A stretch of 32,000 nucleotides of DNA, taken from assembly GCF_000007145.1 (NCBI RefSeq), contig NC_003902.1, positions 4,436,497 to 4,468,496 of the forward strand, read 5' to 3'. A program made the position numbers. Within the stretch, counting starts at the first letter, position 1. Each line of letters opens with the position of its first letter. This document shows positions 24,101 to 27,100 of this stretch, in pieces. The stretch is from Xanthomonas campestris pv. campestris str. ATCC 33913 (lineage in GTDB: Bacteria > Pseudomonadota > Gammaproteobacteria > Xanthomonadales > Xanthomonadaceae).

Positions 24101-27100
24101 CTTTCTGCTGTTCCTGGAGCAGCACCGCATCCTCGACGCCGACCAGCGCGAGCTGGTGCTGGACCGCGCCATGGCGCTGGACCAGGACGAACTGGATCTG
24201 GACGACCTCAAATGGGTCGTGTTGATGGTGCTGTTCAACCAACCGGGCGCCGAAGCGGCTTACGCCTGGATGGAAACGCAGATGTTCCTCGACGAGCCTG
24301 AACCCGTACACTGAAGGCAGAAGCCGCGACGGACGCGCGAGCGAGGGGACGGGGATGAGCAGTTGGTATTACGCCGATGGCAGCCGCCAGCGGGGTGGCC
24401 CGGTGGACGTGGAGGCGCTGCGGGGCTTGTACCGCGACGGCGTGATTGCGCTGGATTCGCTGGTCTGGCGCGAAGGTATGCCTCACTGGGCGCCGTTGGC
24501 TGCATGCGCCGCAGAATTGGGTCCACCGATCGCCACCGACGTGGCGTCATCGCCGCTGCCACCGCCGTTGCCGCTCACCGCTGTCGGCACGACCTCGGCA
24601 CGCCCCACCATCTCATCATCCACTCGTTCGACACCCGTCGCTACCTCGCGCAACGGTGCCGGCTGGGCGATCGGGATTGCGGTCGGGTCAGTGATTGGCG
24701 TGGTTGGACTGGCATTTGTGTTCGGCATCGTCGCTGCGATCGCACTGCCGGCCTATCAGGACTACACCGCGCGCGCAAAGGTCAGCCAAGCCATCGGCGC
24801 GTTGGCACCATTAAAGCCGCAGATCGCCGAATTTCTAGAACGCGAAGGCCGCTGCCCGACCAATGACGACGCTGGCTTCCATCCGCCGGAACACTATGCG
24901 ACGGGGACGTTGGGCATCGTGCGCATCGGCCACTTCGACACGGCCCAGTGCGGCGTGGAGGCCTTGCTGCACATGCCGGACAACGCCAAGCTCGACGGCA
25001 AACCGTTGTGGCTGGACCTGGATCAGGACGCCAGCAGCTGGGACTGCAGTTCCGAGATCGACGACAAATTTCTGCCGCAGGATTGCCGCGGCTAGGCAAC
25101 GGTTTTGACCAAGGGGACAGTATGACGCAGTGGTATTACGCCGACGCGCAGCGGCAACGCCAGGGACCGGTGGACACGGACACGCTCCGTGCGCGCCTGG
25201 AACAGGGCGTCATCGATCGTTCCAGCCTGGTCTGGCGCGAAGGCCTGGCGCAATGGGTGACGCTGGCGGAGGTGGCTGCCGAACTGGGGCTGGAGACGCC
25301 CGCCGCAACGCCCGAGACGGCATCGGTGTTCACGCCTGCGCCGATCACTGCAGATCCCTCGCCTGGCGCCGCGACCAGTGCCGAACAGGTGCCAGAGGCC
25401 GGGTTCACGCCGGTCACGCCCCAGACCACGCAGCCAGACAGCGTGTCGGCCGCGCACATTTCCACTCCCGTGGACGCCGGTAGCGTCGCCAGCTCCGCGC
25501 CGTCTCCTGGCGCCTGGTCGGCGCGTACTGCAGCCGAGCCCTCCGAACACCAGCCAGCCACCACCGCGTCCCCAGCCACACCGGCCCAGGCGACACCGTT
25601 GCCGGCCGCCTGGGACATGCCGGCGACCTCGCTCGGGGTTGCGCCGGTCGCGGACGCACCGATCGTCTACGCGGGCCTGTGGCGCCGGGTGGCCGCCAGC
25701 GTGCTGGACAGCTTCATCACCACGTTTGCGGTGTACCTGATCGTCATCCCGGTGGTCCTGGTGCTGTCGATCGGCCTGGGCGCCTCCAGCTCGTCGTCGA
25801 GCCTGGAGGGCGCGGGCGGCACCGTGGCGATCATGATCCTGGCCTATGGCATCGGCCTGCTGATCCCAACGATTTACTTCGCGTGGATGCAGTCCAGCCG
25901 CCACCAGGCCAGCCTGGGCAAGCTCGCCTGCGGCATCAAGCTGGTGCACGCCAACGGTGGCCGGGTCAGCTTCTGGCGCAACGTGCTGCGCTACCTGGCT
26001 TACATGCTGATCACGGTGCTGACGCTGGGCATCGGGGCGATCGTCTCGGCCTTCATGGCCGGCATGAGCGCACGCAAGCAGGCAATCCACGACAAGGTCT
26101 GCGACACCCTGGTGGTGGACCGCTGGGCCTACACCGACACGCCGGAACGCCAGCAGGTGGGCCTGGACACGGTCACCATCGTGGTGCTGGCGATCTACGC
26201 AGTGATGCTGCTGATCTCCATTGTGTTCGGCGTCCTGTTTGCGGTGATCGCCATCAACCAGAGTTGACAATCGCGGCGCAGGCCGCTTGACACGGCGGCG
26301 CTCGCCGTGATCTTTCTAATAAGAGAACTGAACGCCCGGGCACCTCCCCGGGCGTCGACGTGTGCGAAACAGCCGATCTGCTTCCCTCGACCGGCCAATT
26401 AGGCCACGCTACCTGCCCCCCGGGCTCCGCCCCAAGAATTTGCCACCATGCCCAAGCACCTGCTCATCGTCGAATCGCCCGCCAAGGCCAAGACGATCAA
26501 TAAATACCTCGGCAAGGACTTCACCGTCCTGGCCTCGTATGGGCACGTGCGTGACCTGGTTCCCAAGGAGGGCGCCGTGGATCCGGACAACGGGTTTGCG
26601 ATGCGCTACGACTTGATCGAAAAGAACGAAAAGCACGTGGAGGCGATTGCCCGGGCTGCCAAGAGCGCCGACGACATCTATCTGGCGACCGACCCGGACC
26701 GCGAGGGTGAGGCGATCAGCTGGCATATCGCCGAGATCCTGAAAGAGCGCGGGCTGCTGAAGGACAAGACGATGCAGCGGGTGGTCTTCACCGAGATCAC
26801 GCCCCGCGCGATCAAGGAAGCCATGCTCAAGCCGCGCGCGATCGCCGCCGACCTGGTGGACGCGCAGCAGGCACGCCGTGCGCTGGATTACCTGGTCGGT
26901 TTCAACCTCTCGCCGGTGCTGTGGCGCAAGGTGCAGCGCGGGCTGTCGGCCGGCCGCGTGCAGTCGCCGGCGCTGCGCATGATTGTCGAACGTGAAGAAG
27001 AAATCGAAGCCTTCATCGCGCGCGAATACTGGTCCATCGATGCGCACTGCCGGCATCCCTCGCAGCCGTTCAATGCGCGCCTGATCAAGCTGGACGGGCA

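Follow-up and report, generated by a model that had tools for sequence, protein, structure and literature searches.

Two GYF_2-headed genes between smg and topA

The genes designated here A and B lie side by side in a 32,000-nucleotide stretch of the chromosome of Xanthomonas campestris pv. campestris str. ATCC 33913 (contig NC_003902.1, positions 4,436,497 to 4,468,496 of the forward strand), hereafter called the window. Both encode membrane proteins that begin with a GYF_2 domain, referred to as the head, which is followed in A by a pilin-like domain and in B by a domain of the RDD family. Their features are as follows, in window coordinates (aa, amino acids; TM, transmembrane; ORF, open reading frame; AF2, AlphaFold2).

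24355-25095, + strand: gene A, 246 aa; GYF_2 head, proline-rich linker, one TM helix and a leaderless type IVa pilin domain (ORF and Pfam)
24355-24522, + strand: GYF_2 head of A, aa 1-56, predicted to be cytoplasmic (Pfam and Foldseek)
24559-24573, + strand: candidate GYF ligand PPPLP (aa 69-73), a conserved motif in the linker of A, which otherwise varies
24655-24801, + strand: continuous helix, aa 101-149, a TM segment followed by pilin alpha1 (GIVAAIALPAYQDYTARAKVSQ) (hydropathy and AF2)
24802-25092, + strand: pilin globular domain, aa 150-246, acidic and predicted to be periplasmic, with four cysteines (167, 199, 231 and 244) and a conserved C-terminal loop (CSSEIDDKFLPQDCRG)
25122-26267, + strand: gene B, 381 aa; GYF_2 head, Pro/Ser/Thr/Ala linker of about 125 aa, RDD membrane domain and C-terminal TM helix (ORF and Pfam)
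25122-25289, + strand: GYF_2 head of B, aa 1-56, paralogue of the A head (Pfam and BLASTP)
25668-26102, + strand: RDD domain, aa 183-327, with two strong TM helices, a K/R-rich loop predicted to be cytoplasmic and a weaker third hydrophobic helix
26154-26255, + strand: C-terminal TM helix of B, aa 345-378, aligning with the TM helix of A and with the last TM helix of the single-chain fusions described below

As the first-pass annotation had described, the ORF coordinates place the two genes between smg and topA, co-directional and 26 bp apart (25096-25121), and the predicted proteins share paralogous heads of about 56 aa in which more than half of the positions are identical. The BLASTP alignment of the heads gave 41 identities over 78 positions (E = 6e-20), and 33 of the first 56 positions were identical. 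Both heads matched the GYF_2 profile (PF14237) far above the Pfam cut-off of 25.8 bits (A, aa 4-50, 3.1e-14, 52.9 bits; B, aa 4-52, 6.2e-16, 58.4 bits), and the assignment of a pilin fold to A and an RDD domain to B was likewise borne out by Pfam (2.9e-19 and 1.9e-22, respectively). A GGGGA-type ribosome-binding site precedes each gene, and the start of gene B is the methionine of MTQWYY. Among 66 homologues of the head of A, W4, P16, V37, W38 and G41 were invariant, and Y6, G15 and W45 were conserved in at least 90%. The Foldseek search with the model of A matched the GYF part to GIGYF1/2, Smy2 and the GYF domain of GltJ (7Z3C). In a neighbour-joining tree the A-heads and B-heads formed separate, nearly pure clades, indicating that their duplication is older than the split of the genera.

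The linkers contain short proline-rich motifs. In A, the PPPLP motif lies 13 residues past the head and is conserved at 0.86 versus 0.33 for the whole linker, and 78 of 99 A-type proteins had a PPPxP motif within 60 aa after the head. Of bacterial GYF domains, that of GltJ alone has been studied; it binds a proline-rich sequence of AglZ through its beta-sheet (PMC11135422). PPPLP in the A-type linkers is, on its sequence, a plausible GYF ligand. The AF2 model of A gave a predicted local distance difference test score (pLDDT) of 80 for linker residues 61-70 and below 50 for residues 78-101; the model of a single-chain fusion showed no sign of a proline-rich linker docked on the head (residues 61-77, pLDDT below 50), and the model of A offers a hint at most. 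A PYAAP-like motif was detected in 41 of 114 B linkers, and also in a CD225 protein and in unrelated pilin fusions. The pattern [ST]PYA[AP]P, which may be a GYF_2 ligand, recurs in cytoplasmic N-terminal linkers of RDD, TM2 and CD225 proteins (B homologues P0194-P0237; loci L037, L041, L042 and L060).

The pilin domain of A (Pfam Pilin, aa 139-245) follows a TM segment that hydropathy places at residues 101-135. The AF2 model of A had a mean pLDDT of 87.3, exceeding 90 across the pilin domain, and contained a 46-residue helix (104-149) and a four-stranded sheet with strands in residues 186-233. Its top Foldseek match was full-length PAK pilin (1OQW, E = 4e-6, TMt 0.67). The C-terminal 130 residues of A matched N. 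gonorrhoeae PilE (1AY2, 4.5e-12) from mature residue 12 on, and A matched residues 11-142 of P. aeruginosa PAK pilin (1OQW, 2.2e-9). With the type IVa pilins (PAK PilA 1OQW, PilE 1AY2/2PIL and D. nodosus FimA 3SOK), A shares the alpha-beta roll, the stretch of alpha1 at residues of about 12-53 (AAIALPAYQDYTARA...), a disulfide loop at the C-terminus and the terminal '...LPxxCR', with E values down to 4.5e-12 and Foldseek TMt of 0.61-0.67.

Unlike these pilins, A lacks the prepilin leader, Gly-1, Phe1 and Glu5, and the residues ahead of the aligned part are an unrelated hydrophobic sequence without Glu. In place of a leader of 6-25 residues, about 100 residues, comprising the folded GYF domain and a 45-residue linker and predicted to be cytoplasmic, precede the hydrophobic helix; in the fusions the whole RDD domain does so. 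Loci were collected in a genome scan that used a profile of A homologues on one genome per species and was seeded on the pilin motif AAIA[LVI]PAY[QNK], and the window proteins were mapped on the 80 loci listed. The motif G|[FM]T[LM][IV]E was found neither in A nor in 18 aligned homologues, and G|FTLIE was present in 32 of 44 ordinary pilin ORFs of the same scan. The cysteine columns of the pilin domain were invariant or nearly so across homologues. The C-terminal disulfide loop (aa 229-246), which differs from that of type IVa pilins in being conserved, was the most conserved part of the ectodomain (0.74), and this suggests a fixed ligand. The ectodomain is acidic, with a median net charge of -7, a median isoelectric point (pI) of 4.6 and 92% of the sequences below pI 6 (n=199); a DNA-binding pilin like ComP was rejected on this charge. 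Since the leader, the Gly-1 cleavage site, Phe1 and Glu5 are absent, the pilin module of A would not behave as a pilin: it could be neither processed nor polymerised as one, and appears to be a permanently tethered periplasmic domain of the inner membrane. Judged by their descriptions, XAC3805 of X. citri 306 and AZ78_3612 of Lysobacter capsici would correspond to gene A. The searchable papers on these two genes mention neither a role for the GYF head nor an RDD partner, single-chain fusions or the fixed smg-topA slot, and no functional study was found in the literature on XAC3805, XAC3804/3806 or the RDD proteins of Xanthomonas and Stenotrophomonas.

The RDD domain of B matched nearly the full Pfam model (PF06271; model positions 1-136 of 137; 80.5 bits, cut-off 24.1). 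The Arg, Asp and His-Asp signature of the family, represented by B. subtilis YckC and the RDD protein of Halobacillus andaensis, is present in B as WRR, VLDSF and IHDK. Unlike these relatives, B carries a GYF_2 head and an extra C-terminal TM helix, which in the fusions continues into a pilin domain. The H. andaensis protein is reported to perform Na+(Li+,K+)/H+ antiport that needs R124, R129, D154 and D158, and mutation of R35 and D42, two of the three family-defining residues, left antiport unaffected (PMC5996927); another group inferred an intramembrane binding site facing the cytoplasm (PMC12419801). The function of the RDD family is unsettled, and the earlier statement that neither RDD nor GYF_2 has an established function is to be tempered by the data now available for the GltJ GYF domain and by the antiporter report.

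Single-chain RDD-pilin proteins

Database proteins P0112 and P0113 carry GYF_2, RDD and Pilin domains in one chain, and six genome loci contain ORFs of this RDD-TM-pilin type. The head is a GYF domain in Ahniella (L048) and Pseudomarimonas (L030), and a zinc ribbon in a metagenome-assembled genome (MAG) of Lysobacterales (L026); the fusions of Chiayiivirga (L027) and of two further MAGs (L029 and L032) are headless. Zinc-ribbon heads also occur in P0260 and P0328. A profile of the fusion cores retrieved at least 120 protein clusters with query coverage of 86-100%, nearly all at 99-100%; most were headless (about 305-335 aa), some carried GYF_2 (about 370-490 aa) and a few a zinc ribbon. Fusions occupy the smg-topA slot in L027, L029, L032, L081 (Luteimonas terricola), L082, L084 and L086, the last three being metagenomic contigs, and one GYF fusion, found next to insertion sequences and Rhs genes, lies outside it. 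The RDD-pilin parent family is specific to the order Lysobacterales, between smg and topA, and deeper-branching members of the order have the single-chain gene in this slot; Lysobacterales genomes without it, such as Xylella, lie outside the sample of the genome scan. In the AF2 model of P0112 (pLDDT 85.7), the last TM helix runs on as pilin alpha1 in one 45-residue helix. Foldseek matched this model to pilins and GYF domains, and its RDD part had no match. No paper describing RDD-pilin fusions was found.

In the window, the two modules of this single-chain class are present on separate adjacent genes in the same slot, and every segment of A and B is homologous to the fusions. A joint alignment of fusions with A and B homologues showed that the TM helix of A and the stretch just before it match the last TM helix of the fusions, that B also ends in this helix, and that the heads of all three align. 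Gene B stops 3 residues past the helix, where the fusions run on into the pilin domain. A G..GC.[IVL] motif just before the helix was present in 38 of 101 A-type proteins, 13 of 19 GYF fusions and 28 of 60 headless fusions, and in 5 of 119 B-type proteins.

Topology was assessed from the loop charges and helix hydropathy of 79 single-chain fusions (K+R, D+E, mean hydropathy, predicted location).

TM1: K+R 0.0; D+E 1.0; hydropathy 2.14; membrane
TM1-TM2 loop: K+R 0.2; D+E 3.1; hydropathy -0.77; periplasm
Loop from TM2 to the third helix: K+R 4.7; D+E 2.4; hydropathy -0.34; cytoplasm
Third helix: K+R 1.2; D+E 0.0; hydropathy 1.08; weak, not a full TM helix
Loop from the third helix to the last TM helix: K+R 5.4; D+E 4.6; hydropathy -0.67; cytoplasm
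Last TM helix (TM4): K+R 0.0; D+E 0.0; hydropathy 2.71; membrane

These values suggest that the N-terminus of the fusions is inside, that TM1 leads out and TM2 back in, that the third helix is membrane-associated on the cytoplasmic face, and that the last TM helix leads out to a periplasmic pilin domain. The GYF heads would accordingly be cytoplasmic. The predicted topology agrees with the two conserved cysteine pairs and with the usual orientation of pilins, and is assigned to B of the window by homology to the fusions.

Taken together, the alignment and domain data indicate that A and B are very probably the separated halves of an RDD-TM-pilin membrane protein whose pilin module is tethered in the periplasm. 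The simplest history suggested by the alignment and phylogeny is that the fusion came first and was then split. A GYF-RDD-pilin gene would have been duplicated in tandem in the lineage of Xanthomonas, Stenotrophomonas, Pseudoxanthomonas and Lysobacter; the first copy would have lost RDD to become A, and the second the pilin globule to become B, both keeping the head and the last TM helix. Tandem duplication with reciprocal loss would explain the order of A before B.

Genomic context and distribution of the pair

The gene order fmt, def, lysM, dprA, smg, GYF genes, topA and tsaC was found in Xanthomonas, Stenotrophomonas, Pseudoxanthomonas, Lysobacter, Luteimonas and Arenimonas. Of the 20 complete smg-to-topA loci, which belonged to Xanthomonas, Stenotrophomonas, Pseudoxanthomonas, Lysobacter and Luteimonas, 19 had at least one B gene directly behind A, in agreement with the predicted co-occurrence of the two genes, and the pair was present in all Xanthomonas and Stenotrophomonas genomes examined. 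Extra B copies gave the arrangements A-B-B, B-A-B and A-B-B-B in Pseudoxanthomonas and Luteimonas. A-type genes and one GYF fusion were also found away from dprA. Sequence divergence is faster in A and B than in the adjoining genes: between Xanthomonas species, identity was 67-71% for A and 74-86% for B, versus 97-99% for Smg and TopA.

In E. coli K-12 the corresponding order is rsmB-fmt-def and dprA-smg-yrdD-tsaC, with nothing between smg and yrdD. This empty slot marks A and B as a lineage-specific insertion, as had been proposed for the conserved cluster; the accompanying statement that smg and topA are usually adjacent fails for E. coli K-12, where smg adjoins yrdD, a short topoisomerase-like gene. 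The sharing of one cytoplasmic head by different membrane modules extends to a third GYF_2-headed gene in the smg-topA slot of Pseudoxanthomonas koreensis (L014, 7471-8004), which carries a CD225 module (interferon-induced TM protein family) and whose linker holds PPPV and GPYAAPYS motifs. In Luteimonas terricola (L081, 9716-11977), two extra genes lie between topA and tsaC, one of them with PG_binding_1 and X-Tfes_XVIPCD domains; the latter is a signature of Xanthomonadales type IV secretion effectors. The cluster therefore accepts insertions at another junction too.

The flanking features in the window were as follows.

22661-23797, + strand: dprA, upstream flank (Pfam)
23841-24314, + strand: smg/DUF494, upstream flank (Pfam)
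26448-28943, + strand: topA, downstream flank (ORF); tblastn identity 74-98% across loci
26291-26356: two GC-rich hairpins in the 180-bp spacer from B to topA, of which that at 26291-26309, with a T-rich tail behind it, is terminator-like on the + strand

All 28 loci with a visible smg (L001 to L053) kept the dprA-smg synteny, and Pfam Toprim and Topoisom_bac domains were detected on the orthologous topA neighbours. Four terminator-like sites were found versus 2.1 expected in shuffled sequences, which is weak evidence; the hairpin before topA would stop an A-B (or dprA-smg-A-B) transcript, and no terminator-like site was found in the 40-bp spacer from smg to A. A scan of 22500-26600 with the sigma-70 consensus found no promoter and is uninformative in DNA of 66% GC. 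The Rfam gathering scan of the whole window detected no structured RNA or riboswitch in the spacers, its single hit being a tRNA at 4662-4734. The nearest database proteins were a 'pilin [Xanthomonas campestris]' with 98% identity to A and an 'RDD family protein [X. campestris]' with 96% identity to B.

Two other regions of the window were observed. A gene at 2107-3189 (- strand) encodes a YopJ-family acetyltransferase (Pfam 3.4e-53) resembling a type III effector and lies in a stretch of lower GC content (55-60% versus about 67%). Near it are an rve-type insertion sequence transposase (3685-4539, + strand) and the tRNA gene (4662-4734, - strand), with rpoD (5519-7408, - strand) just downstream, and the acetyltransferase, transposase and tRNA stretch is probably a small effector islet. 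Located 6-9 kb upstream of the A/B pair are genes for a Wzy_C protein (15007-16296, - strand), similar to an O-antigen ligase or O-oligosaccharyltransferase, and for a PMT_2 glycosyltransferase (16436-18157, - strand). Relatives of these two families glycosylate pilins in other bacteria.

Interpretation and competing explanations

Several observations weigh against reading A and B as halves of one protein. The head is absent from most fusions, so that its ligand is not essential to the core function and the head is an optional accessory. One Arenimonas smg-topA slot contains A only, and A-type genes stand alone in Rudaea, Pseudolysobacter, Arenimonas oryziterrae and one MAG, which means that A can be retained where no B adjoins it. 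The third RDD helix of B in the window is more hydrophobic than that of the fusions (2.23 versus 1.08). The direction of the proposed change rests on the taxonomic spread of the fusions and on a head tree of 58 columns; the reverse order, in which two genes fused into one chain, is possible, although it would require a change of gene order.

With A and B taken as halves of one protein, a mechanism may be proposed. The two proteins would come together in the membrane and so restore an equivalent of the single chain, and their GYF heads would bind proline-rich motifs as GltJ does, namely PPPLP in the A linker and PYAAP-type motifs in the B linkers, either in cis, in trans or on a third cytoplasmic protein. 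The unit would then be a trans-membrane adaptor through which a periplasmic binding domain of pilin fold is coupled to the cytoplasm. This mechanism is tentative and proposed with low confidence; the architecture and mechanism combined are considered rather probable. The precedent is GltJ of Myxococcus xanthus, a component of the gliding-motility focal adhesion composed of a zinc ribbon, linker, GYF domain, TM helix and periplasmic domain. Like A and B, it is a membrane protein with an N-terminal cytoplasmic GYF adaptor and a periplasmic module, and a zinc ribbon also forms some heads of the RDD-pilin family. The membrane and periplasmic modules of A and B differ from those of GltJ, and the window contains no Glt or Agl genes. 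Identity of A or B with GltJ (NCBIfam equivalog NF033761) was rejected, as the matches reached 31.9 and 24.5 bits against a cut-off of 450 and covered the GYF region only.

The first-pass annotation regarded the pair as a two-component membrane system, that is, two independent envelope components docking on a common partner through their heads, with a role in DNA uptake or as a pseudopilus suggested by the proximity of dprA. The heads are indeed paralogous, GYF domains are adaptors for proline-rich sequences, the pair lies 0.5 kb downstream of dprA with no terminator-like site in the smg-to-A spacer, and a third GYF-headed membrane gene occupies the same slot in L014. Nevertheless, independence is hard to reconcile with the covalent linkage of RDD and pilin modules in at least 120 clusters, mostly headless, and DNA binding would be disfavoured by the acidic ectodomain. 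The dprA-smg-(topA/yrdD)-tsaC region is a housekeeping neighbourhood also present in E. coli, where it contains neither A nor B; A-type genes, like one GYF fusion, occur away from dprA; and the leader and Glu5 needed for pseudopilus assembly are missing, as are Gly-1 and Phe1. This explanation is therefore unlikely: a real functional pair stands, better read as a split gene, and the links to DNA uptake and to a pseudopilus are not upheld. It is also extremely improbable that A is a genuine minor or alternative type IV pilin, with a non-canonical processing site and built into pili, beside an unrelated B. Databases name A 'pilin' or 'PilA', it has the fold and the alpha1 motif (AAIALPAYQDYT) of type IVa pilins, and one paper still considered an A-type gene a possible pilA paralogue (PMC10333488). 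These likenesses do not account for a folded N-terminal region of 100 residues in place of a leader, for the missing Gly-1, Phe1 and Glu5, or for the same module standing behind a polytopic RDD, TM2, DUF2628 or M48 domain, which is incompatible with extraction into a filament. The conservation of the C-terminal loop above the rest of the ectodomain and the absence of adjacent pil genes in the window argue in the same direction.

Another explanation would make the RDD domain a monovalent cation/proton antiporter as in H. andaensis, with the head and pilin domain as regulatory appendages. The antiport data for one RDD protein (PMC5996927) are in its favour, and in B the sequence HDKVCD has one Asp at the HD position and another four residues further on. 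The fusions, with the consensus HDxVAGT, lack the second Asp, and mutation of R35 and D42 had no effect on antiport. Two full TM helices and a weaker third are small for an antiporter, and the binding site proposed in PMC12419801 faces the cytoplasm within the membrane, making this function quite improbable for the pair. An anti-phage or phage-related module, such as a pilin decoy or an RDD-based defence sensor, is highly improbable. The RDD region of B matched the C-terminal part of PADLOC PD-T4-6 (PDLC04051), and A and B diverge much faster than Smg and TopA; however, the match covers only model positions 335-474 of 476 (E = 8.8e-9), which is the shared RDD domain, and assignment of this defence system was rejected. 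A and Smg had no match in the PADLOC scan. Two further points speak against this role: throughout an order the locus is inherited vertically in one fixed housekeeping slot and is not part of a defence island, and an ectodomain at the inner membrane is not exposed to phage. In summary, the unit formed by A and B, as halves of one protein, appears to be neither a pilus subunit nor a DNA-uptake device.

The leaderless pilin domain is not confined to this family. In the genome scan, 12 of 44 pilin-looking matches had no leader, and most of these were leaderless pilin domains fused to other membrane proteins, at whose C-terminus the pilin domain stands. In Pseudomonadales, Cellvibrionaceae and Ketobacter the partner was a zinc ribbon with TM2, and in Woeseiaceae and an Osedax symbiont it was a protein of about 600 residues that carries a signal peptide; TM2 by itself, Peptidase_M48 and DUF2628 were the other partners. 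These fusions look like a broader class of tethered pilin modules. The leaderless pilin fusions of Gammaproteobacteria were located as follows.

L037: 7314-8438
L041: 7302-8879
L042: 7281-8858
L060: 7281-8393
L051: 3826-4551
L054: 7209-8486
L064: 7419-8471
L062: 6198-8369
L071: 33-2198

No description of TM2, DUF2628 or RDD pilin fusions was found in the literature. It is conceivable, if rather unlikely, that leaderless pilin domains joined to RDD, TM2, DUF2628 or M48 are unrecognised 'pilin mimics' that dock on the assembly platform of type IV pili or type II secretion, or on the membrane pool of pilins. If so, they would report or control the state of the pilus or secretion platform at the inner membrane, and the GYF or zinc-ribbon heads together with the PPPLP and PYAAP motifs would wire this state to a cytoplasmic scaffold.

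Reading A and B as halves of one protein would give a handle on RDD and bacterial GYF_2, two domains with little or disputed functional data. It predicts an interaction between A and B, sets how they lie in the membrane and puts forward short linear motifs as GYF ligands. The database label 'pilin' or 'PilA' on A would be misleading for work on pili, adhesion and phage receptors in plant and human pathogens. More broadly, several membrane proteins unrelated to one another have taken up the pilin fold as a fixed module in the periplasm, which widens the notion of a pilin domain and may point to a further layer of control over pilus or secretion machines.

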